Below, piece by piece: positions 4,055 to 24,968 of a stretch of 24,968 bases of DNA. Made by a program: the position numbers and the translations under genes. Every line of letters starts with the position of its first letter. Within the stretch, counting starts at the first letter, position 1. Below the pieces are notes generated by a model that saw nothing but the letters and a program-made list of their open reading frames with translations, was not told the DNA's origin and made no database searches. Source of the stretch: an uncultured Anaerolineales bacterium (GTDB taxonomy: Bacteria; Chloroflexota; Anaerolineae; B4-G1); NCBI GenBank assembly GCA_964635485.1, contig CAZWPV010000001.1, positions 1-24,968 of the forward strand. Reading direction: 5' to 3'.

Positions 4055-6951
4055 GTGTCACCCCCTTCAAAATCCTACTAATCGAAGACAATCCGGCAGA
4101 TGCTCGCCTGCTGCGGGAGATGCTGGTCGAAATAAAAGACGCTCCGTTCGAGCTGGAGTGGGTCGACCGGCTCTCGGCAGGATTAGAGCGTCTGACGAAG
4201 GGAGACGTCGACGCAATACTACTGGACCTCTCACTGCCGGACAGCCAGGGCCTCGACACGTTCTTGCAGGTGCAGGCCCAAGCTCCCCACGTGCCCATCA
4301 CCGTGTTGAGTGGCCTCGACGACGCAGCGCTGGCCCTTCAAGCTGTGCGCGAAGGCGCGCAGGACTATCTGGTCAAGGGAAAGATAGACGGCAATTTGCT
4401 GGTGCGCGCCATCAGGTATGCCATCGAACGCAAACGGATAGAAGAAGCATTGCGCGATAGCCTGCAGTTCAGTTCCAGCCTGCTGGGCAACTCTCCTCAC
4501 CCGATCCTCGTCATCAATCCCGACACCTCGATACGATATGCAAACCCCGCTCTGGAAAGGCTGACCGGGTTCTCCGCAGCCGAACTGATCGGCCGGAAAG
4601 CCCCCTACCCCTGGTGGCCGGAAGAAATATGGGAACAAGAAACCCGGCTGCTGAATGGGTTAATGCTCCAAGAAACACGTAGACTCGAGAGGTGCTTCCA
4701 GAGGAAGGACGGGAAACCACTCTGGGTTGAGATCAACGCGGTACCGATCGTAAGCAGCGGGGAATTCAAGTACCGCCTGTCCAACTGGATGGACATCACC
4801 GAGCGCAAGCAGGCCGAGGAAGAGATCCGCCGTCGCGCCGCTCATCTGGAGGCCCTCAATGCCGTAATTGCTGCCGCCGCTGGCGCGCCGGTCCTCACAG
4901 ACTTGTTGAAGGCTGCGCTGGAGCACACGCTGCAAGCCTTTGGTCTGGTGATGGGCGCCATCTGGCAATCAGGCCAGTACGTCATACAGGGCATTGAGCA
5001 GAAGGCCGGGCAAACCAATGCCCACGAAGCTCTGGCCGCTGGCCTTGCCATTGCCAAATCCGTCGTCGTGGAGGACTGGTGTAGGGTAACAGACGATGAT
5101 CCGCTGTCGGCCATCGCTCCCATCATGACCAGCTTTGGCATCCGCTCCTCCCTCGCCATACCCATCCAGGTCGAAGAGCGCCGGATCGGCGGGCTGGCCA
5201 TCGTCTCCCCTGATCCCCGCTCTTGGGCTGCCGATGAGGTTGCCCTGGTGGAAGCCATCGGCCAGCAACTGGGAGCAGCGACAGAAAGGCTACGCCTTTT
5301 CCAAGCCGAGCGGGAGCAACGGGAGTTGGCCGAGGCTCTGCAGGAAGCAGCCGCCGTCGTCGGCAGCACCCTGGAGGCCGACGAGGTACTCGACCGCATC
5401 CTGGAGCAGGTAGAGCGCGTCGTGCCGGGCGATGCCTTCAACATCATGCTGGTAACAGACGGTGGCAAGGCCCAGATCGTCCGCTGGCGAGGATACGAAC
5501 GCTTGCCAGCGAACGGCCCGGAAGCTAGAACTGAATATCTACTCGACGAGATCCCTAATCTGCAGAAAATGATGCAGACAGGGGAAGCGATCGTCGTCTC
5601 GGACACCTCCACGGACCCCGACTGGGTGGTATTGGGAGGCCAGAAATGGCATCGTGCCTACATCGGCGCCCCTATAAAACTGGGAGGCGTAACGGTAGGC
5701 TTTTTGAACGTGAATGACACTCAGGCAAGTCCGTTCGGCATCGATGCCGGTCGACGGCTGCAGGCCTTTGCCAACCATGCCGCTATCGCCATCGAGAACT
5801 CGCGATTGTACCAAGAGTTGCTCAGCCACGCCGAGGAATTGAAGAAGCGCGTGGAGGAGCGTACCGCCCAGATACAGGCCCAATATGCCCAGTTGGAAGC
5901 GATTCTGCGCAGTTCCTCCGACGGTATCGTCGTCACCGACAGCCAGGGGAAAACGATCCAAGCCAACCCCATCGCCAACGCTTGGCTCACTCAAACGCTC
6001 TCGCCCGATGATGCAGTGCAGCTAAGCGAGGCAATACAGGGTCTAGCTGCACGAGCCCCGGAGCGGCCAGAACGGGTGCTGGAACTGGCAGGGGTAGACC
6101 TTGAATTGCGCGCAGTGCCGGTCACAGAGGCCGAAGGGGAAGCGACTGCCTTGGTGACAATCCACGACATCAGCCACCTGAAAACTCTAGATCGAATGAA
6201 GTCGCAATTTGTCACCAACGTCTCCCACGAGCTACGGACCCCCATCACGACGATTAAGCTGTACGCGGCGTTGATGCAAAAGTCGCCACGAGACAAATGG
6301 GAAGAATACCTCAACCCACTAGCCCAAGAAGCTGACCGGCAAGCGCGGCTAGTAGAAGACATCCTGCAGATCTCGCGCATCGAAACCGGGCGGCTGGAGA
6401 TCAGCCCCCGCTCTGTTCCTCTAAATGAACTAACCGAGACTGTCTTTATCAACCATCAACCACTGGCACAGGAGAGGGAGATGACCATCGAGCACCGTCC
6501 GGCGGAGCCGGGACCAGAGGTATTGGTAGATCCCGACAGAATGACGCAGGCGTTGGCCAACCTGGTGACAAACGCGATCCAGTATACACCCAGGGGCGAG
6601 GGCATAGCCATCTCCACCGCAGAGAAAGAAGCAAAAGGTCGCACGTGGGGCACAGTAACGGTGGCCGATACGGGGATGGGCATCCCGGAAGAGGAACTGC
6701 CCCACATCTTTGAGCGGTTCTTCCGGGGGGAACGACCGCGGAGCTTGCAGATACCCGGGACGGGTCTGGGGCTGGCGATCGCAAAGGATATCGTAGAACT
6801 GCACGGAGGCCAGGTGACGGTGGAAAGTGAGATAGATATGGGTACCACCTTCACCATTTGGCTACCTCTTGCGCGTGACGTAGATCAACAGGAAGGCCCT
6901 GGTAGCCAACCGCCGTTTGGAGCGAGAAAATGGAGACACAGCACATCCTAG
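4051..6951 (+). CDS. Hybrid kinase: REC - PAS - GAF - GAF - PAS-like - HisKA - HATPase
   Basis: ATGA overlap with the upstream gene. REC motifs LLIEDN, LLDLSLPD and YLVKG. H-box SHELRTP, NLVTNAIQY, DTGMG, GTGLGLA. Confidence 0.93.
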   Translation: MSVTPFKILLIEDNPADARLLREMLVEIKDAPFELEWVDRLSAGLERLTKGDVDAILLDLSLPDSQGLDTFLQVQAQAPHVPITVLSGLDDAALALQAVREGAQDYLVKGKIDGNLLVRAIRYAIERKRIEEALRDSLQFSSSLLGNSPHPILVINPDTSIRYANPALERLTGFSAAELIGRKAPYPWWPEEIWEQETRLLNGLMLQETRRLERCFQRKDGKPLWVEINAVPIVSSGEFKYRLSNWMDITERKQAEEEIRRRAAHLEALNAVIAAAAGAPVLTDLLKAALEHTLQAFGLVMGAIWQSGQYVIQGIEQKAGQTNAHEALAAGLAIAKSVVVEDWCRVTDDDPLSAIAPIMTSFGIRSSLAIPIQVEERRIGGLAIVSPDPRSWAADEVALVEAIGQQLGAATERLRLFQAEREQRELAEALQEAAAVVGSTLEADEVLDRILEQVERVVPGDAFNIMLVTDGGKAQIVRWRGYERLPANGPEARTEYLLDEIPNLQKMMQTGEAIVVSDTSTDPDWVVLGGQKWHRAYIGAPIKLGGVTVGFLNVNDTQASPFGIDAGRRLQAFANHAAIAIENSRLYQELLSHAEELKKRVEERTAQIQAQYAQLEAILRSSSDGIVVTDSQGKTIQANPIANAWLTQTLSPDDAVQLSEAIQGLAARAPERPERVLELAGVDLELRAVPVTEAEGEATALVTIHDISHLKTLDRMKSQFVTNVSHELRTPITTIKLYAALMQKSPRDKWEEYLNPLAQEADRQARLVEDILQISRIETGRLEISPRSVPLNELTETVFINHQPLAQEREMTIEHRPAEPGPEVLVDPDRMTQALANLVTNAIQYTPRGEGIAISTAEKEAKGRTWGTVTVADTGMGIPEEELPHIFERFFRGERPRSLQIPGTGLGLAIAKDIVELHGGQVTVESEIDMGTTFTIWLPLARDVDQQEGPGSQPPFGARKWRHSTS

Positions 6952-8039
6952 TCGTCGAAGATCACGAGTCCCTCTTGGCAGCCATCCAACACGTCTTGGA
7001 GATCGAGGACTACTCCGTCCTGACTGCCATCGACGGCGTGGAGGCATTGGATATGATGGACAAAGTCCGCCCCGATCTGATCGTAGCGGACATCATGATG
7101 CCCCGAATGAATGGCTACGAATTCTACGAAGCCGTCCGCGCTCGTCCCGAATGGGTACCGATTCCCTTCATCTTCCTGACCGCCAGATCGGAGAAAGAGG
7201 ACATGCTGAAGGGAAAATCGCTGGGCGTCGAGGACTATATCGTCAAGCCATTTGACCCAGAGGAGCTAGTGATAGCTGTCCAGGCCCGGCTGAAACGCAC
7301 CCAGGCCATCCAAGAGGCCTCGGAAGCGGACTTTGAGCAACTCAAACAACAGATCGTCAATACACTGAGTCACGAACTGCGTACACCACTGACCTACATC
7401 CAAGGGTACACGGCGCTAGCGTTGGAGGACACTCACACCGCCAAATATCTCCAAGACTTCCTGCTGGCGATCAAAGGAGGTGCCGACCGGCTGACCCGGC
7501 TGGTCGAGGACATGCTGCTACTAGTCCAGTTGGACACAGGCCAAGCGATGAAGGACTTTGAGTCACTGGCCGACGTACAGCAGGATCTGAACGGAATAGT
7601 AAAACATACTGTCCAGCAATATGCAGAACAGGCATCCACCCAAGACATGACTCTGCAGGTCGAGACGACACCTAACCCACCACAGATACGGCTGTGCGAG
7701 CCCTTCTTCGTCAATGCACTGGGTCGCTTGGTAGACAATGCCATCAGATTCTCCCGAAACGATGGGAAACAAGTAACCGTGAGTATCCGCGCCAGTGATG
7801 AATGGGGAGAGATAATTGTGCAGGACGAAGGCATAGGCATCGCCACTGAACAAGTCCCCCATCTCTTCGAACGATTCCGACAGATCGACAGGGAAGAGAT
7901 GGAACAGCAAGGTGCGGGGCTAGGGCTGGCCATTGCCCAGGGACTGATCGCCCTGCACGGCGGCGAGATCACAGTCGATAGCAAACTCGGAGAAGGATCG
8001 ACCTTCACAATTCGGCTGCCAATAGTCAAAAGCGTCTAG
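6930..8039 (+). CDS. REC - HisKA - HATPase hybrid kinase
   Basis: REC motifs LVVEDH, ADIMMP and YIVKPF. SHELRTP, LVDNAIRF, DEGIG, GAGLGLA. Overlaps the upstream CDS by 22 nt. Confidence 0.93.
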   Translation: METQHILVVEDHESLLAAIQHVLEIEDYSVLTAIDGVEALDMMDKVRPDLIVADIMMPRMNGYEFYEAVRARPEWVPIPFIFLTARSEKEDMLKGKSLGVEDYIVKPFDPEELVIAVQARLKRTQAIQEASEADFEQLKQQIVNTLSHELRTPLTYIQGYTALALEDTHTAKYLQDFLLAIKGGADRLTRLVEDMLLLVQLDTGQAMKDFESLADVQQDLNGIVKHTVQQYAEQASTQDMTLQVETTPNPPQIRLCEPFFVNALGRLVDNAIRFSRNDGKQVTVSIRASDEWGEIIVQDEGIGIATEQVPHLFERFRQIDREEMEQQGAGLGLAIAQGLIALHGGEITVDSKLGEGSTFTIRLPIVKSV

Positions 8040-8094: not shown

Positions 8095-8553
8095 ATGGGT
8101 GAAAGCATCATCGTTCGTCAAAACAGCCAGTTCGAGACCGAGATCAAGGCTCAAGATCCTCGCAATCCAGACGACCAAGACTTCTACTCCGTCGGCGACA
8201 TCCATCAACTGACACCGTACGGACTGCTACTGGCAGGGCTTGGCTCCTGCACGACCATCATCCTGCACACCTACGCCCAGTACCACGACGTGCCGTTGGC
8301 GGAGGTGGAAATACACCTGGAGTACGACCGCTTCTTTGCCGACGACTGCAAAAACTGCGAGGAAATCGAGGAATACAAGGAACAGATCGACATGGAGATC
8401 GCCCTGTTCGGAGGAGGCCTGATGCCAGAGGAGAAGCGCAGGTTGTTCATGGTCTCCAAGCACTGTCCGATTCACAAGATGCTCGCGCAGGGCATCACAG
8501 TCAAGTCGCAACTGATGGAAGGTACAGAGGAGGAACAGAATGCAGACACGTAA
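8095..8553 (+). CDS. OsmC/Ohr-family protein (YhfA-like) with an extra CxxC
   Basis: Conserved OsmC cysteine pair in LLAGLGSCT and KHCPIHKML, extra DDCKNCEE, AAGGAG RBS. Confidence 0.85.
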   Translation: MGESIIVRQNSQFETEIKAQDPRNPDDQDFYSVGDIHQLTPYGLLLAGLGSCTTIILHTYAQYHDVPLAEVEIHLEYDRFFADDCKNCEEIEEYKEQIDMEIALFGGGLMPEEKRRLFMVSKHCPIHKMLAQGITVKSQLMEGTEEEQNADT

Positions 8554-9505
8554 GCTCGGCTACAGCGATTTGCACCTGACGACCGTCGGCCTGGGCACCT
8601 GGGCCATCGGCGGGGAGTGGCAATGGGGCTGGGGACCGCAGGACGACGCCGAGTCCATCGCGGCCATCCAGCGCGCCCTCGATCTGGGCATCAACTGGAT
8701 CGACACTGCCCCGGCCTACGGCGTGGGGCACTCGGAGGAAATAGTCGGCAGGGCGATTGCTGGACGTCGAGAGCAAGTCATCATCGCCACCAAATGCAGC
8801 CTGGTGTGGGACGAGGGCAGCACCACGACCTACGCGCGGCTCAAGGCCGAGAGCGTCCGCCGCGAGGCAGAGGACAGCCTGCGCCGCCTCAACGTGGACG
8901 TCATCGACCTGTACCAGATCCACTGGCCAAGGCCCGACGAGGACGTCGAGGAGGCGTGGGGAGCCATCGCCGACATGATCGGGGAGGGCAAGATACGCTA
9001 CGCCGGGGCCTCCAATTTCAGCGTGGCCCAGCTCAAGCGCGTGCAGGCGATCCATCCGGTCGCCTCCCTGCAGCCGCCCTACAGCATGCTCCGGCGCGAC
9101 GTCGAGGAGTTGCTGCCTTACTGCACCGCCAACGATATCGGTGTGGTTGCCTACAGCCCGATGCAGGCCGGGCTGCTGACGGGCAAATTCAACAAGGAGC
9201 GCGTCGCCAGCCTGCCCGACGGGGATTGGCGCAAGCAGAACCCCTTCTTCCGTGAGCCGCAGATCAGCGCCAACCTGGCGTTGGTCGAAAAGCTGCGCCC
9301 CATCGCGGAGCGAAACGGCAGGCCGCTGGCGCAGTTGGCCATCGCCTGGGTGCTGCGGCGACCGGAGGTGACGGCGGCCATCGTCGGCGCGCGGCGCCCC
9401 TTCCAGATCGAGGAAACGGCCCCGGCGGGAGACTGGACCCTCTCGCAAGAGGACATCGCCGAGATCGACGCACTCCTGGAAGAACGCGATAAAGCACTAG
9501 CCTGA
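8540..9505 (+). CDS. Aldo/keto reductase
   Basis: GLGTWAIGG and the catalytic tetrad in IDTAPAYG (D,Y), IATKC (K) and YQIHWP (H). Also LQPPYSML and YSPMQAGLLTGK. Confidence 0.95.
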   Translation: MQTRKLGYSDLHLTTVGLGTWAIGGEWQWGWGPQDDAESIAAIQRALDLGINWIDTAPAYGVGHSEEIVGRAIAGRREQVIIATKCSLVWDEGSTTTYARLKAESVRREAEDSLRRLNVDVIDLYQIHWPRPDEDVEEAWGAIADMIGEGKIRYAGASNFSVAQLKRVQAIHPVASLQPPYSMLRRDVEELLPYCTANDIGVVAYSPMQAGLLTGKFNKERVASLPDGDWRKQNPFFREPQISANLALVEKLRPIAERNGRPLAQLAIAWVLRRPEVTAAIVGARRPFQIEETAPAGDWTLSQEDIAEIDALLEERDKALA

Positions 9506-9520
9506 GATTGGAGGTCGCCA

Positions 9521-10006
9521 ATGGCCGAGCGAGTCAGCGTTGGGCAAGCAGCCCCCGTCTTTGAGTTGACCGACGTGCAGGGAAACGCCGTCCGCCTCTC
9601 CGATTACCGAGGGGAGAGGCACGTGCTCCTGGTTTTCACGCGCGGTTTTATGTGACCCTACTGCCGTGCCCATCTCGCGCAGTTGCGTGAGGACTATGAC
9701 AAGTTCGTAGAGCGCGATGCAGAAATCCTCGTCATCGGCCCCGAGGGACCGCGCCGCTTCAAGCAGGTGTGGGAGGCAGAGCGCTATCCTTTCGTGGGCT
9801 TTGCCGATTACCGCCACACCGTCGCGGATCGCTACGGCCAGGAGGTCAAACTGCGAAAGCTGGGCCGCATGCCCGCGCTGCTGATCGTCGACAAGCGCGG
9901 CGTGATCCGCCTCGCTCACTTTGGCGACGACATGGCCGACATCCCGAAAAACAAGGACGTGCTGGCGCTGCTGGATCGGTTGAACCAAGAGGAGGTCGCA
10001 CAATGA
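9521..10006 (+). CDS. Peroxiredoxin-like (AhpC/TSA, redoxin) selenoprotein with a UxxC motif, 161 aa
   Basis: GGAGG RBS, then ATG at 9521 reading MAERVSVGQAAPVFELTDVQGNAVRLSDYRGERHVLLVFTRGFM-TGA(9653-9655)-PYCRAHLAQLRE..., in frame with the track ORF 9683-10006. The TGA sits at the first Cys of the redoxin CxxC, and a SECIS-like hairpin follows. Confidence 0.85.
9674..9691 (+). promoter_or_regulatory. Putative bacterial SECIS element
   Basis: 7-bp stem CUCGCGC/GCGUGAG (one G-U pair) with loop AGUU. The loop begins 25 nt after the UGA and has G at loop position 2, matching the general bacterial SECIS model. Confidence 0.65.
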
Positions 10007-10423
10007 GCAATCTGGCGGATATACAAACGCCTATCTTTTGGGCCGAGGGGCACCCCGGTCCTCTTTCGGCGCAGGGTTGGAAAGTCGAAGTCGGCGGGCT
10101 GGTCGAAAAGCCGGTCACGCTGACGTATCAGGAAATCCTCGATCTACCCAAGTCGGTCGCCGATGCCCGCTGACGTCGGTGTCGGGCTGGTCGGTGCGCG
10201 GCAACTGGGGCGGCGTGCGCCTCAGCGACCTGCTGCCCCTGGCCAACCCCAAGCCCGAGGCCAAACACGTCCAATTCATCTCCTACCGCAAGGCCTATAC
10301 CACCTGCATTCCACTCGAGGTTGCCTTGCAGGAGCGCACGCTGCTGGCCTACGAGTTCGACGGCGAGCCGCTGGAGTTCACCTATGGCGACCCCATCCGC
10401 ATCTTTTGCCCCTACCTGTGGGG
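10003..10423 (+). pseudogene. Molybdopterin-dependent oxidoreductase (sulfite-oxidase/MsrP-YuiH-like Moco domain), frameshifted and 3'-truncated
   Basis: ATGA overlap with the redoxin stop. WKVEVGGLVEKPVTLTYQEILDLP...ADAR in frame 1 continues as LTSVSGWSVRGNWGGVRLSDL...YTTCIPL...LLAYEFDGEPL..YGDPIRIFCPYLWG in frame 3 (one base missing at ~10170). Family-like sequence stops abruptly after YLWG. Confidence 0.8.
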
Positions 10424-10430
10424 GGCAGCG
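10412..10430. mobile_element. Probable att junction (left boundary of an integrated element)
   Basis: Host Moco-gene homology ends at TGG GGG (~10423). The recombinase frame crosses this point and stops at 10412-10414 inside the host gene. GC drops from 45/60 (line 10201) to 27/60 (line 10441). Confidence 0.6.
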
Positions 10431-10968
10431 CAATCCGCCATACTGAGACGTGTGCTCCCCGGCTCTTTACTCAGTATGAACGTGGGATAGATAACTTTTT
10501 CCCCATCCTCTACCACGAGATTTGCCCGCACGTCTAGCAACTCGACTATGCGACGTCGCTCTGCAAAATCCTCGTCGGCACTCCCCAATCCGGCCGATAG
10601 GCGCTCACCGAATGTGGCTACCTCACATATCTGATCATCCGGCAAGATATATTGCAAGCGCATCTCCATACCATCCCGTTCTACTTCCAGCTTGGCGATG
10701 GTGTCCTCCAGCCGTTTCTTACGCTCCAACAGCATATCCTTGTCAACGGCGCCGGACAGATATAGGTCAATCAGCCTTTCCAATTGTGCCTTGTGCCCCG
10801 GAGCAGGTTGTTAATCGTTTCGATTTGTGCCAGAACGGGGGCATTTGCCTTCTTGCGCTCCGTCCGATAGACCTCTAGTTTCTCAGCTAACTTCTTCGGG
10901 TCCTGTAGCCAGTCCTTCAGCCAGTCCCATACCAGCGCATCCACATGATCAGCGCGAAGTGAAGGCGC
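10412..10968 (-). pseudogene. C-terminal remnant of a large serine recombinase (coiled-coil/C-terminal region), with an internal frameshift near 10797
   Basis: APSLRADHVDALVWDWLKDWLQDPKKL...NNLL, a frame change, then GHKAQLERLIDLYLSGAVDKDMLLERKKRLEDTIAKLEVER...FAERRRIVELLDVRA.... This is the pattern of the region after the zinc ribbon in large serine recombinases. In-frame stop at 10999-11001 upstream, no start codon and no catalytic domain. Confidence 0.7.
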
Positions 10969-11125
10969 GAGCGTTAAGGCCGTTTGGTGGCCGCCAGGTC
11001 AGCGCGGCAGGCCCCAAGCGGTGAGGCCGTCCAGCAGGAGGTTCCGCGAAGCCGAGGGCGCGTACCGCTGCCGGTGGATACAAGGTTGATGATAGCACAG
11101 CACGAATGTTCTGATTTGGCAAGAT

Positions 11126-11247
11126 CAGGCTGAAGCCAGCGAGACCTGTCCTGAGGCGCCCCCCGAGCAAGTCGAGGGGCGGAGTCGAAGGAAGCCCGCT
11201 TTACCGCATGGACTCAAGCCCAGCAGCTTGCGGCAGGCTGAATCCTG
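11126..11247. repeat. REP-like repeat mosaic with a nested element
   Basis: CCTGTCCTGAG (11145-11155)...CGGAGTCGAAGGA (11180-11192) is interrupted by a related unit CCCCGAGCAAGTCGAGGGG (11161-11179). It is flanked by two degenerate CAGGCTGAAGCCTG-type palindromes (11126-11139, 11234-11247). Confidence 0.6.
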
Positions 11248-11307
11248 TCAAGTGCCTATGCCTGTGAATAGTAACGCCTGGCCTTAATTTAGTTCGTAAC
11301 ATTTATC

Positions 11308-11316
11308 TGCTATCAT
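11308..11316 (+). promoter_or_regulatory. Putative extended -10 promoter element for the surface-protein gene
   Basis: TGC-TATCAT in an AT-rich stretch ~50 nt upstream of the ATG at 11368, with an AAGGAG RBS further down. No good -35. Confidence 0.4.
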
Positions 11317-11367
11317 AAGTGTAGCTGGAGGAACCAGATAAGTAGGAGAAGCTAAGGAGTAGACAGA

Positions 11368-14367
11368 ATGGACAGGCAAGTATCCAATGGGTTCAAATGG
11401 GCACGGGCGGGTCTTTCTGTTGCAGCTTCATCGTTCTTGTTTCTGGCCGTATTGCCGCAACTGCGTGTCAGGGCCGCCGATTCGATTCCCGACGCCCCTA
11501 TCGCGCTCGAATCGGACGCGGCGCAGTGGGAGGCTATCCCTATGTCTGTGGATAAACTCCCGGCATCTCTAGACGCGGCGGAACCTGGCGCGCTTCTGGA
11601 CGCAAGCCCGAACACCAACGTACAGATTGACGGGGCCTACAGCTTGCCGGGCGCGGCAACACACATCGACACGGTCACCGATTCCTCCGGCAACATCTAC
11701 GTGGTTTACGAGTACCTCGACGGCGCCAACTACGACACCATCGTCGGTAAGTCCACCGACAGCGGATCTACCTGGACACTTCACAGCATCGGTGGATCCG
11801 GGAACGAGCGACATCCAGTCATTGCCATCGACACCTCCGGCTACATCTTTATCGCCATCGACCACACGCCGGGTGGCACCACCTATCCAGCTTTTTGCAA
11901 GTCCACCAATCCTGGAAACATCAGCAACTGGAACTGCGGCTACTTCAGTGGCCTTTCCGACGGTTCGCAGAACCCCGCCATCGCCACGTACGGCGGAGGG
12001 GCCACGGCCACCGTCTATATGGTCTGGCAGTACCGCTCCGGCTCGGTCTACACCCTGCGCTACCTGTACTCGACCGATGGGGGAGGAAGCTGGAGCACGG
12101 CGGCCTTCTCGTCCGGGACATACTCCCGCCTCTACCCGGTAGCTGCTCTTAGCGATAGCGGCGGCACGACCTACGTATCCCTGGCTTACCAGTACGACTA
12201 TCCTGGTGAAGGGGATGTGTACGTGATTTATGAAACGGAGGGCAGCAACTCGTGGAGCATAGCCCTCTCTTACACGAACGGTCGCAAGGAAGCCTATCCG
12301 ACGCTGGCCGCCAGCGGCAGCAACGTCTACTTTGCTTACCAGTACAATCGACGGAACAACAACGACGACATCTACTTCCGCTACTCCACGGATGGCGGGC
12401 GGAGCTATAACGGCTCAGACATTGTCATCGCCGCCTCTAATAGCAACGAGCGCTACCCCTCCCTGGCCGCCCAGGGAGCGGACGTGCGGGCGGTCTACGT
12501 TTATAAAAGCCAGGCTACCTACTTGCGGCTGTCTACCTCAGACTACGGGGCTTCCTGGGGCGACCCGTACACGATGAACGACGCCGGGAACACGACCGAG
12601 GAGGGGTTCCGGGCCGTAGACGTCAGCTATCGATACGACGCCCACCCGGCAGTGGTCTGGATCGACAACCGCAACAGCAGAACCGACTACGATCCCTACT
12701 ATGCCACGCTGAACGATGACCCGCTGGCTCCCACGCAGTCTACTCCCTTCGACAACGAGAAGAGCGACGACACCACCCCGGATTTCACGTTCAGCGCTAC
12801 CGACCCTGATGCCGACACGTTGAGCTACCGCATCCAGGTCGACGACGACTACGACTTTAGCTCCCCGCTGGTTGATCGAAATTCCTCCGTCGATGGCACA
12901 GGGTTCAGCGGCAGCGATCCCTACGCCAGCGGTAGCGACGTCACCTACACTTACCAGGCCACGGACCCCGCCCTGAACGACGGCGTGACCTACTACTGGC
13001 GGGTGCGGGTCAAAGACCTCATTGGGGCCTGGAGCGATTGGTCGGCGACTTGGAGCTTTACCGTCGATACCTCCGATGCGACCACGGCCTGGTTCCAGAC
13101 CACCGGGGAGCAGTTCGAGACCGGCACACACGATGACACCGAGATAGCAGCAGGCGGCGACGTCCAACTGGACCTGCCTCAAAAATCCGGTTCCTTCACC
13201 TCGCCCGTCATCGACATCGCAGACTTTGGGGTCGGCGCGGAGTGGGGCGAGATTCACTGGGCAGACAGCGAGCCCAACGACACCGACCTGAAGGTCCACG
13301 TCTACTACGACGCCAGCGGCACGCCGGCGATTATCCCCAATGCTGCGCTACCCGGCAACGCCGCCGGTTTCGGTACCAACTTCATCGACCTCACCGGCCT
13401 CGACGCCGGAACGTACGACAAGCTCTATCTCCGGGCGGAGCTTTTCACCTCAGACAACAAGGTCACTCCAGTACTCTACGAGTGGGCGGTGAGAAAAGAG
13501 AATACCGCCCCCTCCAGCCAGACGGTGACCGGGGCCATCTCCACCGATTCGGGCGAACGGTACACCTTTGGCCAGACCGGCGCCACGATCGAGTTCCCCT
13601 CCGATGCGCCCGACGCCGCCTGCACCATCACGGTGACGGTGAGCCGGAACGCCTCCCTGGGCAGCAGCGTTGGCCGCGGGTACAGCATCGACACCGACTG
13701 CACCTCCTTCAACGCGACGCTGACGCTGGGGTACACGCAGGCCGAGATGAACGGAAACACCGAGAGCACGATGAGCCTGTACCGCTCGAACGGTGGCCCC
13801 TGGCAGCAGGTGCTCGTCTCTGCCCGCGACACCAACGCCAACACGCTGACCACCGAGAACGTGACCGCCTTCTCTGATTGGCGCATGGGCGACAACAACC
13901 CTACGGCAGTCACCCTGGCTGCCCTCACCGCCGAATGGGAGGGTGAGCAGGTGGTGGTGGCGTGGGAGACGACGCTGGAGGTGGATACCATCGGCTTCAA
14001 CCTGTGGCGCAGCACTGCCCCCGATGGCGAGTACGAGCGGGTCAACGAGACGCTGATCCCCGCCGCCTCACCGGGCGGGGTGTGGGGTGGGCCTTATGCC
14101 TACGCCGACGCCGGCGTCACGCTCGGCGCGACCTACTACTACAAGCTCGAGGAGATCGAGATCGGCGGCGCGAGGAACTGGTACGGGCCGGTTTCGACCG
14201 GGGCAGAAGCCCCCACCGCCGTGACGATCTCAAGCTTTGCGGCGCAGAACCCGAGCAGCCCGGCCCTCGCCTGGTGGCTGGCGGTGGCAGCGATAACCAC
14301 CGGCGCGAGTGGAGCGTTGCTCAACCGCCTGCGCAAGGGACGCTGTAAGCAAAACCTTTTCGGCTGA
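11368..14367 (+). CDS. Secreted/cell-surface protein: signal peptide, Asp-box (BNR) beta-propeller, Ig/Fn3-like and other beta-sandwich modules, PTAV-motif C-terminal anchor
   Basis: N-terminal basic + hydrophobic segment ending VRA-AD. Asp-boxes STDSGSTW, STDGGGSW, STDGGRSY and STSDYGASW. TYYWRVRVKD Fn3-like strand. PTAVTL and PTAVTI motifs, then a hydrophobic helix and RLRKGR. Confidence 0.88.
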   Translation: MDRQVSNGFKWARAGLSVAASSFLFLAVLPQLRVRAADSIPDAPIALESDAAQWEAIPMSVDKLPASLDAAEPGALLDASPNTNVQIDGAYSLPGAATHIDTVTDSSGNIYVVYEYLDGANYDTIVGKSTDSGSTWTLHSIGGSGNERHPVIAIDTSGYIFIAIDHTPGGTTYPAFCKSTNPGNISNWNCGYFSGLSDGSQNPAIATYGGGATATVYMVWQYRSGSVYTLRYLYSTDGGGSWSTAAFSSGTYSRLYPVAALSDSGGTTYVSLAYQYDYPGEGDVYVIYETEGSNSWSIALSYTNGRKEAYPTLAASGSNVYFAYQYNRRNNNDDIYFRYSTDGGRSYNGSDIVIAASNSNERYPSLAAQGADVRAVYVYKSQATYLRLSTSDYGASWGDPYTMNDAGNTTEEGFRAVDVSYRYDAHPAVVWIDNRNSRTDYDPYYATLNDDPLAPTQSTPFDNEKSDDTTPDFTFSATDPDADTLSYRIQVDDDYDFSSPLVDRNSSVDGTGFSGSDPYASGSDVTYTYQATDPALNDGVTYYWRVRVKDLIGAWSDWSATWSFTVDTSDATTAWFQTTGEQFETGTHDDTEIAAGGDVQLDLPQKSGSFTSPVIDIADFGVGAEWGEIHWADSEPNDTDLKVHVYYDASGTPAIIPNAALPGNAAGFGTNFIDLTGLDAGTYDKLYLRAELFTSDNKVTPVLYEWAVRKENTAPSSQTVTGAISTDSGERYTFGQTGATIEFPSDAPDAACTITVTVSRNASLGSSVGRGYSIDTDCTSFNATLTLGYTQAEMNGNTESTMSLYRSNGGPWQQVLVSARDTNANTLTTENVTAFSDWRMGDNNPTAVTLAALTAEWEGEQVVVAWETTLEVDTIGFNLWRSTAPDGEYERVNETLIPAASPGGVWGGPYAYADAGVTLGATYYYKLEEIEIGGARNWYGPVSTGAEAPTAVTISSFAAQNPSSPALAWWLAVAAITTGASGALLNRLRKGRCKQNLFG

Positions 14368-18216: not shown

Positions 18217-19332
18217 TCACACCTCGGCCGGCGGCAGCCTGATTGTGAAGGTGCTTCCTTTCCCAATGGCGCTCGCTACCGTAATCTCGCCGCCGTGTAG
18301 GTGGATCACCCCTTGGGCGATGGCCAGCCCGAGCCCTACCCCTTGCTGTTCCATCTTCTCCCTGGCGACCTGTCGGAACCGCTCAAAGAGATGGGGGATT
18401 TCGCCGGGCAGGATTCCAGGACCCTCGTCAATCACGGCGATCTCTGATTGATTCTGTACCTGCTGGGCGCTCACCGTAACTCGTTTTCCCTCCCCCTGGG
18501 AGAATTTGATGGCGTTGTCGATCAGCCTGCCCAGTGCGTCGGCAAAGAGCGGCTCGCACAGTTGCACCGGCGGTAGGTTGGGTTCTACCAGATATTCCAG
18601 CGTCATGCCCTTGGCCGCCGCTTGCGGTTCGTACTGGCTGATCGTGCGCGTCACGATCACGTCCAGATCGCTACGCACCTCTACCAGCTGCCGAAACTCC
18701 TTTTCCGCTTGGCCGGTATCCAGCCGAACTAACGTCAAAAAGTCGTCCGCCAGGCGGGTCAGTCGATCCGCTCCCTGGCTGATACTCTGGAGGAACTCCT
18801 CGAGAAGCTCAGGAGGCAAAGAAGGAATGTCTTCCAGCGCCAGTTCGGTGTACCCACGGATATAGGTCAGCGGCGTGCGCATCTCGTGCCCCAACACGGT
18901 GACGATTTGCTGCTTAATCTCATCGAGCCTCGCCTCGGCGTTTTCCTGGACGGCCTGCGCGCGCGCCAGCCGGGCACGCACCGTCACCAGCAGTTCCTCT
19001 GGATCGACGGGCTTGACCAGGTAGTCCTCCACGCCCAGTGCTTTTCCCTTGATCACATCCTCGCGCCGTGCCCTAGCGGTCAGAAAGATAAAGGGAATCG
19101 ACGTCCACTCGGCGTGGGCGCGCACTGCACGGTAGAAATCATACCCATCCATGCCGGGCATCATAATGTCTGCCAAGATGATATCGGGAGCCTTTCCCTC
19201 CATCACTTGCAGTGCTTGCACGCCGTCGTTGGCGGTCGAGACCGCGTATCCATCCGCTTCCAAGAAGCGCTGGATGGCCACCCGCAGGGAGGGCTGATCC
19301 TCCACGACTAACACGTGCCCAATACTGTCCAC
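18217..19332 (-). CDS. REC - HisKA - HATPase hybrid kinase, paralogue of 6930-8039
   Basis: Likely GTG start at 19332 (VDSIGHVLVVED) after AGAAGGTGG. ADIMMP, YLVKPV, GHEMRTP, LIDNAIKF, DEGPG, GVGLGLA. Confidence 0.9.
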   Translation of the reverse strand: MDSIGHVLVVEDQPSLRVAIQRFLEADGYAVSTANDGVQALQVMEGKAPDIILADIMMPGMDGYDFYRAVRAHAEWTSIPFIFLTARARREDVIKGKALGVEDYLVKPVDPEELLVTVRARLARAQAVQENAEARLDEIKQQIVTVLGHEMRTPLTYIRGYTELALEDIPSLPPELLEEFLQSISQGADRLTRLADDFLTLVRLDTGQAEKEFRQLVEVRSDLDVIVTRTISQYEPQAAAKGMTLEYLVEPNLPPVQLCEPLFADALGRLIDNAIKFSQGEGKRVTVSAQQVQNQSEIAVIDEGPGILPGEIPHLFERFRQVAREKMEQQGVGLGLAIAQGVIHLHGGEITVASAIGKGSTFTIRLPPAEV

Positions 19333-19353
19333 TATCCACCTTCTTCGCACACG

Positions 19354-24138: not shown

Positions 24139-24762
24139 TCAAACCTCTTCGCTTTGTCTTTCCTTGGCCAGCAAAGCATAAACATCGGTGTGGACGAAAA
24201 AGTGCATGGGACTGACGTCAAAAGCCCGGGCCAGGGCAGCGACGGTGGACAGCTTGGGGTCTTGTGCCCGCCATCTTTTGTTCCTCAATTTCCACACATA
24301 CGTACCATCGGTGAGCCCGGCTCTCTCGGCGATTGCCTCGTTGGTAAAGGGGGTGCCGTCGGGCTGGGTTATCAGGGTAAACAGGCGCTCCAGCCTATCG
24401 CCAAAGATGACATCATCGGAGGCGGGAGCAGGTTCGCCGCCCAGGTCAAGCCAATGCTGCAGGGCGCGGAGGGTATCCGGGCTAATCTCATAAAACTGCG
24501 CCTGCACCTCGGCAGACGTGATCTGACGATCGTCCCGCACGGGAGAAAGGACCACGACCAACACGGTGGGGTCTGATGGCTGGTCCCTATCGACGATGAG
24601 CTGCTCGACGTGGGCGCGAGGAACACGCCAGTGATTCCCATCCGCAAAAAACTCCTGGAACGCGCCGGGGAGGTGCCCCGCCTTAACCCATAGTTCAATG
24701 GTACACTCGTCAACTCTACACAGGGCGGTGACGCATGCGGCAGATAGCGTGTCATATTGCAT
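24139..24762 (-). CDS. Double-HTH DNA-binding protein: N-terminal excisionase/MerR-like (HTH_17-like) domain plus C-terminal XRE/EspR-like domain
   Basis: ATG at 24762 after AAGGAGGAAGGAG. N-terminus LSAACVTALCRVDECTIELWVKAGHLPG...WRVPRAHVEQL. C-terminus FGDRLERLF...TNEAIAERAGL..TYVWKLR...DPKLSTVAALARAFDVSPMHF. Confidence 0.72.
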   Translation of the reverse strand: MQYDTLSAACVTALCRVDECTIELWVKAGHLPGAFQEFFADGNHWRVPRAHVEQLIVDRDQPSDPTVLVVVLSPVRDDRQITSAEVQAQFYEISPDTLRALQHWLDLGGEPAPASDDVIFGDRLERLFTLITQPDGTPFTNEAIAERAGLTDGTYVWKLRNKRWRAQDPKLSTVAALARAFDVSPMHFFVHTDVYALLAKERQSEEV

Positions 24763-24877
24763 ACTCCTTCCTCCTTTACTCGACAAGCTCCCCTGGCTAA
24801 CGCCGTAATTGTTCACCCTGCCCACTTTGGATCTGACAACCCAGCGGGAGCGGCTGAACGTATCTTCTCAATAAGTA

Positions 24878-24968
24878 GGGGGAGATGGGGGGTGGGGGGG
24901 GGGGGGGGGGGGGCCGCCCGCCCCCCCCCCCCCGCCCGCGGGGGGGACTTAGGCAGGGGGGATGGAAA
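24878..24968. other. Low-complexity G/C homopolymer tract at the window end (probable sequencing/assembly artefact or collapsed GC palindrome)
   Basis: 20-G run (24894-24913), 13-C run (24921-24933) and further G runs. Confidence 0.6.

Follow-up and report, generated by a model that had tools for sequence, protein, structure and literature searches.

Probable fossil of a site-specific serine-integrase insertion in the PYLWG codons of a YedY-like molybdopterin oxidoreductase gene of an uncultured Anaerolineales bacterium

Well-known large serine recombinases (LSRs) include SPbeta SprA/YokA, A118 Int, TP901-1 Int, Anabaena XisF and the Ccr recombinases of SCCmec. In the serine-integrase scheme, crossover takes place at a central dinucleotide between attP and attB. 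Elements that split a gene are known in the form of skin in sigK (SpoIVCA), SPbeta in spsM and the fdxN element (XisF), and 'active lysogeny' is known from Listeria comK. Site-specific LSRs typically integrate into and disrupt conserved coding genes (Durrant et al., 2022; PMC10083194). The literature searched contains no co-mention of YedY-like Moco oxidoreductase or molybdopterin genes as an LSR attB, so that the insertion site described here, of which the first-pass annotation too knew no description, appears to be undescribed so far.

The window (the whole stretch of 24,968 nucleotides that was analysed) contains the broken 5' part of such a gene with the tail of an LSR gene running antisense into it. 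The arrangement is likely to be the fossil of a site-specific integration by an LSR element, of which the recombinase-proximal att junction has been kept and has since decayed. The features of the locus, in window coordinates, are as follows.

10003–10423, plus strand: 5' pseudogene fragment of a YedY/MsrP-like SUOX-fold molybdopterin oxidoreductase gene (codons 1–141 of 199, ending in ...FCPYLWG)
10170–10173, plus strand: 1-nt deletion (CGC[C/T]TG to CGCTG) in the Moco fragment, from DNA alignment with L005 and L007
10410–10425, no strand: recombinase-proximal att junction (attL-type), from the breakpoints of the window and three more junction contigs, compared with intact genes
10412–10968, minus strand: LSR pseudogene remnant, from homologues P0002–P0008, tblastn and the L010 domain map
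10795–10801, minus strand: frameshift of the remnant in a C4G2 run, from three-frame translation and a tblastn frame switch at 10795–10798
10969–11282, no strand: orphan noncoding stretch of 314 nt, reaching to the promoter region of the next gene, with no protein, Rfam or locus similarity
11283–14367, plus strand: upstream region and gene of a 999-residue secreted BNR/Ig-domain protein (Pfam); host-type DNA, second synteny break

The molybdopterin-binding domain PF00174 was detected by Pfam on both frame pieces of 10003–10487 (E = 1.6e-20 for the second piece and 1.3e-4 for the other), and a complete, uninterrupted 199-residue Moco reading frame is not present in the window. More than 1000 homologues were found; the 120 listed are 166–214 residues in length, nearly all of them 199, and the best match among those listed is the 199-residue protein P0009 (91% amino-acid identity to the fragment). 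This intact orthologue scores 82.8 bits against the MsrP equivalog of NCBIfam (NF003767), far under the cut-off of 207, and the gene is therefore a shorter YedY/MsrP-like relative and not MsrP itself. In all seven homologues that were read (five of 199 residues and two cut at 166 residues) the sequence continues past the point of truncation as ...RIFCPYLWG-YKSAKSVVGI.... Seven metagenome loci with an intact Moco gene (L003–L009) are collinear with the left side of the window at 74–95% DNA identity. The blastn identity of 87–95% to these loci ends in all seven at 10423, the last G of TGG-GG, which confirms the earlier reading that the host gene departs from its family directly after PYLWG. Beyond this point the open reading frame runs on for 22 unrelated codons, and the insertion has provided no replacement 3' end. 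The 58 missing codons (starting YKSAKSVVGITLEAHSIPGYWEVRG...) were not found in the window by tblastn, in line with the previous statement that the 3' end of the gene lies outside it. The deletion at 10170/10171 shifts the frame and gives a premature TGA at 10171–10173, and the same frameshift is present, gap-free, in an independent Logan contig. From the end of identity at 10423 and the 1-nt deletion, the host gene is therefore a frameshifted stump of 141 codons. The insertion has inactivated the Moco gene.

In L003–L006 the intact Moco gene belongs to an apparent oxidative-damage repair cluster (about 8100–13100 in L003 coordinates; compare 8095–10423 in the window). The order in these relatives is OsmC, aldo-keto reductase, Sec-peroxiredoxin, Moco oxidoreductase, 90-residue ORF, second Moco oxidoreductase (Moco2), 81-residue ORF, MsrA and thioredoxin. 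In the closest relatives 12 genes lie 3' of the Moco gene (the 90-residue ORF, Moco2, the 81-residue ORF, MsrA, thioredoxin and seven others). None of these 12 is present in the window, and in this lineage the left half of the cluster alone has been kept at the locus.

The gene directly upstream of the Moco fragment (9521–10006, plus strand) is of the AhpC/TSA peroxiredoxin type and has an in-frame TGA at 9653–9655, which sits in FTRGF(M/V/I)-U-PYC, a UxxC redox motif. The TGA is kept in seven loci, namely the window and six relatives including the distant L039, and a hairpin (CUCGCGC-AGUU-GCGCGAG) that resembles a bacterial SECIS element lies 21 nt downstream of it. Gene callers split the gene into ORFs of 44 and 107 residues. 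On these sequence features it looks like a selenocysteine-containing peroxiredoxin and not a pseudogene.

The recombinase remnant on the opposite strand (10968–10415) comprises 545 nt of recombinase sequence and corresponds to the last ~183 residues of an LSR, that is, the end of the zinc ribbon, the coiled coil and the C-terminal domain. Three-frame translation gives a peptide in two frames, ...SLRADHVDALVWDWLKDWLQDP...LERLIDLYLSG...IVELLDVRANLVVEDGEKVIYPTFILSK...AAPHR-stop, the frameshift in the C4 run at 10796–10799 splitting the remnant into ORFs at 10771–10944 and 10412–10783. The coiled-coil and C-terminal region is homologous to bona fide LSRs: identity to P0002–P0007 is 42–56% (P0005 and P0007 carry PF13408/PF07508), SPbeta YokA is the best match among solved structures (E = 2e-16) and XisF the best in NCBIfam. 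The closest full-length relative, at 57% identity, is the LSR of L010, a Thermoflexales MAG, which matches the window in tblastn with E = 2.5e-49. Its domain map (Resolvase 25–173, Recombinase 198–309, Zn ribbon 330–386) places the start of the window remnant at about residue 370. The ~370 N-terminal codons, with the catalytic, recombinase and zinc-ribbon domains, are missing from the window. Four full-length or near full-length LSRs gave no tblastn match upstream of 10968, the catalytic domain PF00239 with its nucleophilic serine is absent from the window and present in the homologues L001, L010 and L037, and Pfam detected neither PF07508, PF13408 nor any other domain in the window recombinase fragments. 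One relative of the remnant, in L001, follows a Resolvase-domain ORF. As judged from its sequence, the remnant is the last third of an LSR gene, without the catalytic or DNA-binding core. A candidate LSR N-terminus in 10969–11370 was also considered and was rejected; the apparent match that tblastn extends as far as 11118 is spill-over of the alignment and lacks conserved Cys residues and other motifs.

The terminal codons of the remnant, CCC-CAC-AGG-TAG (P-H-R-stop), are the reverse complement of host sequence 10412–10423, and the stop codon (TAG, 10412–10414) is host-derived, as the first-pass annotation had proposed for this minus-strand LSR C-terminus. The sharp fall in GC content that it reported at the junction is real as a drop (0.629 in the Moco part and 0.539 in the remnant) but is not extreme, the remnant lying at the 5th percentile of the 545-nt windows of the whole stretch. 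Like the LSRs of phages and integrative elements, the remnant has homologues with a Resolvase, Recombinase and Zn-ribbon/coiled-coil architecture, and as with known LSRs the recombinase gene lies at the element edge, adjoining the att site, and a conserved coding gene is disrupted. Unlike known LSRs, the window copy is a dead fragment with no catalytic part, and its ORF reads across the junction into host DNA.

At the junction the host arm (CCCTACCTGTGG) meets an element arm that begins at 10424 (GGCAGCGCAATCC...). We infer that crossover took place within the GGGG run at 10420–10423, probably at the GG at 10422–10423. The closest intact relatives have an ACTTGT-GGGGAT-ACAAGT dyad, the centre of which would place the crossover at the third and fourth G. 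Such symmetry, an expected property of an attB, is weak here, is not kept across the relatives and reaches significance in the closest ones only: around the GG, ten of 20 positions pair in L005 (the top 2% of positions in that locus), compared with a background-level five of 20 in L007. In core sequence and in shape, the event fits the established serine-integrase scheme. A reciprocal junction (attR, of the form (element arm)-GG-ATACAAGTC) or a two-junction locus was not found in genome, metagenome and viral scans, nor was an attP found in any collection searched. The reconstruction of attB and attP by way of the other att site, as had been envisaged, was thus not attainable from these collections. 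With no attR, attP or intact recombinase found, the attB/attP pair is therefore defined from one side of the recombination only.

The same junction was found elsewhere. In three more contigs, L001 (a Logan contig from run SRR10589506), L002 (an NCBI MAG) and L039 (a JGI metagenome), a related recombinase tail runs antisense into a Moco gene that is broken at the same codon. When aligned on the breakpoint, all four junctions read ...TA(C/T)-(C/T)TG-TGG-GG and then enter the element, where the intact genes read ...TGG-GGA-TAC-AAG. L002 and L039, at 94% DNA identity, represent one lineage. Between the window, L001 and L002/L039, identity is 65–70% for the Moco protein and 47–55% for the recombinase, and at this distance they are three independent witnesses of one insertion point. 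Common to all three are the nucleotide breakpoint, the convergent orientation and the recombinase reading frame. The shared breakpoint beside LSR tails in two further lineages indicates site-specific integration and not chance, and it upholds the initial proposal of a serine-recombinase integration junction in the PYLWG codons.

The recombinase is 5'-truncated in two of the three lineages and frameshifted in the sole contig of the third (L001). Truncation in L002 occurs at nearly the same residue as in the window, and L039 is truncated ~30 codons further in; from this difference between L002 and L039, an active integrase may have persisted during some of the time in which they diverged. The dN/dS ratio between these two remnants is 0.31, a value based on nine synonymous and ten non-synonymous changes and hence on too few to interpret. 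At L002 2–649 and 701–1261 an IS66-family transposase gene (PF03050, E = 1.7e-25) and the truncated recombinase tail directly abut each other, which suggests, but does not show, a possible route to such stumps.

A scan of genomes with the recombinase tail gave 27 loci, none of them near a Moco gene, and a scan of metagenomes gave 59, of which L039 alone is near one. As all 27 genome loci and 58 of the 59 metagenome loci lie away from Moco genes, the association is specific to this subclade. IMG/VR yielded no recombinase relative and the phage collection no recombinase match; in plasmids there were only marginal matches, in Rhizobium (~30% identity over 71% of the query). A profile search of 1.84 billion representative proteins returned 428 matches at E <= 1e-30. 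Among the best 150 of these 428, ~40 are 500–660 residues long, the size of a full-length LSR, and P0003 only has the antisense-Moco tail ...PHR. Intact recombinase homologues in the same gene, as sought by the first-pass annotation, were not found, and no collection searched contained an intact recombinase that targets the Moco gene. The clade is confined to Chloroflexota-type metagenome genomes.

The relatives that lie away from Moco genes have C-terminal tails that are all different. In L010 (2229–7020) the LSR gene is convergent with, and ends inside, a truncated AlkZ-related gene that neighbours recF, and an FtsK/SpoIIIE-like gene lies two genes upstream of the integrase. Given the loci away from Moco genes, the differing tails and the AlkZ-related target of L010, the clade appears to change targets and the Moco-targeting branch is small. 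The L010 locus is a candidate for an integrative element, either mobilisable or conjugative, that uses another attB. Its FtsK/SpoIIIE-like gene gives a hint of conjugation or mobilisation and not of a phage, and the absence of the clade from phage collections agrees with this.

To the right of the scar, the orphan stretch resembles neither the remainder of the window nor any of the loci retrieved, and its own repeats are at chance level; nothing relevant came from Rfam and tRNA scans that covered the window and 10300–11500. Similarity of the BNR region to relatives begins at 11283–11413. In relatives the BNR homologues follow a response-regulator/histidine-kinase pair at another place in the chromosome, and on neither side does the 999-residue BNR gene of the window have its usual neighbours. 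Five sensor kinase/response regulator genes and a weak HTH_17 ORF lie farther right. No mobility genes and no conjugation, replication or phage genes were found on this side, and its tetranucleotide signature correlates with that of the left side at r = 0.95, as high as between halves within a side. The element was initially thought to extend rightwards; what follows the junction is the 545-nt remnant, the 314-nt orphan stretch and then host-signature DNA without mobility genes. A look-up of a 156-residue response regulator, aimed beyond the end of the window, found nothing on record.

A ~50-nt GC-rich, hairpin-like dispersed repeat (...CCTGAGGCGCCCCCCGAGCAAGTCGAGGGGCGGAGTCGAAGG...) of salt-marsh metagenomes lies within the orphan stretch at 11143–11193, with three to nine times the depth of its flanks and many loose ends in four runs, and at least six other contexts in one run. 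At 11173 the window has C and the independent contigs of all four runs have T; at 11185 it has T and those of three of the four runs have A. Response-regulator/histidine-kinase hybrid paralogues with ~67% DNA identity flank the scar at 6930–8039 and 18217–19350. Finally, a ~80-nt intergenic repeat at 24860–24939 has 78–90% identity to copies in L003, L004, L005 (two), L006 and L100. In these relatives the copies are found behind thioredoxin in the Moco cluster and ahead of the gene for the BNR protein, and the repeat is probably REP- or MITE-like and specific to the lineage.

It is most improbable that the window is an assembly chimera or carries sequencing errors that have created the 10423 join and the frameshifts. 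In favour of an artefact one could cite the metagenomic origin of the contig, the three reading-frame interruptions within about 1.2 kb and the dispersed repeat at 11143–11193, which breaks many contigs. However, the stretch is present in 24 salt-marsh or marsh runs, Logan contigs from separate runs span 9400–11181 (X1), 10314–11091 and 10442–11335 gap-free, and an independent JGI contig (L104) covers 10388–11416 at 99.8% identity with no gaps. The Logan and L104 contigs reproduce both joins and the recombinase frameshift, and X1 also covers the Moco frameshift. The third interruption, the TGA of the peroxiredoxin gene, is in frame and, being kept in seven loci, is not an error, and long ORFs elsewhere in the window (839–1466 residues) are intact. 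From the agreement of the independent contigs, the 10423 join, the two frameshifts, the 10968 truncation and the connection with the following gene are real in a natural population. The region has no RNA runs on record. On the three points where the first-pass annotation saw itself as vulnerable, the evidence went its way: the minus-strand peptide is an LSR tail, intact homologues continue past YLWG and independent assemblies reproduce the join. The Moco deletion, the recombinase frameshift and the loss upstream of residue ~370 go beyond what it had described. Chance juxtaposition, in which an unrelated deletion ended in the Moco gene beside a stray recombinase fragment, can be given hardly any credence. 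The lack of an attR or attP and the weak dyad symmetry of the attB would be in keeping with it, but the breakpoint nucleotide, the orientation and the recombinase frame are identical in three independent lineages, and no Moco gene lies near the relatives in the 27 genome loci or in 58 of the 59 metagenome loci.

The element might instead still be present and extend to the right past the window, with the BNR and sensor-kinase genes as cargo and the integrase internally deleted. Neither the Moco 3' end nor the second junction is found in the right-hand 14.5 kb, as would be the case for a longer element; the 999-residue gene lies outside the context that its homologues keep in relatives; and the weak HTH_17 ORF (24139–24825; 24.2 bits, under the cut-off) has an excisionase-type fold. 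We nevertheless consider a persisting element to be unlikely, because the right side is free of genes for conjugation, replication or phage functions, shares the tetranucleotide signature of the left side, and carries lineage-specific repeats and a paralogue of the left-side kinase gene. Moreover, the related intact L010 locus has an FtsK-like gene near its integrase and there is nothing like it here. We conclude that the element is gone, and that the second junction and the host gene block are gone too or have moved elsewhere. The loss may have come about by deletion or by a more complex rearrangement, and the right-hand DNA may have originated as former cargo.

In the preferred reading, that of a decayed site-specific integration, an element bounded by an LSR gene in convergent orientation to the target would have recombined its attP with an attB that lies in codons 138–143 (P-Y-L-W-G-Y) of the Moco gene, which encodes a cytoplasmic 199-residue YedY-like molybdopterin oxidoreductase. 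Crossover in the GGGG run of TGG-GGN would have split the gene after codon 141 and left the recombinase ORF ending in antisense host codons (P-H-R-stop). A later deletion or rearrangement would then have taken the first ~370 recombinase codons, the rest of the element and the second junction, as well as the 3' part of the Moco gene and its Moco2-MsrA-thioredoxin neighbours. This would have left the stump joined to unrelated host DNA, after which both stumps may have gained their frameshifts. We infer this order of events, and also that the missing remainder was deleted and not transferred to another place in the genome.

The locus would resemble the skin, SPbeta, fdxN and comK insertions in that a coding gene appears to be split at a precise codon with no replacement 3' end. 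In contrast to these systems, there is no evidence of regulated excision for the window element; the split is permanent in the window, and the recombinase is dead by 5' truncation in two lineages and frameshifted in the third. It also resembles degraded prophage and ICE remnants, in that a frameshifted integrase stump adjoins a former att site, the other parts of the element are lost and, in the sister copy L002, an IS element abuts the remnant. It differs from these in that the 545-nt remnant is unusually small and in that the host genes of one side were lost along with the element. What is new is the target gene and codon and the Chloroflexota-restricted integrase clade; gene-splitting serine integrases and decayed relics are known kinds.

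For genome engineering the use of the system is limited, as neither an intact integrase nor an attP was recovered. For annotation the lesson is that the Moco and recombinase fragments should be called pseudogenes. A more far-reaching possibility is that a Chloroflexota-specific subclade of serine integrases has the YLWGYK codons of this cytoplasmic YedY-like Moco gene, in its oxidative-stress repair cluster, as a dedicated attB, with an ORF that spans attP so that integration would swap its last residues, and that with a live integrase the insertion would act as a reversible on/off switch of the gene; this we regard as speculative and rather improbable. The decay of an insertion is illustrated by the integrase, which is truncated, with an IS66 transposase gene adjoining it in one sister copy, and frameshifted, and the neighbouring repair genes Moco2, MsrA and thioredoxin have been lost from the locus. 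The PYLWG-YKS codons of the YedY-like Moco gene, split between G and Y, are a previously unlisted addition to the targets of serine integrases.
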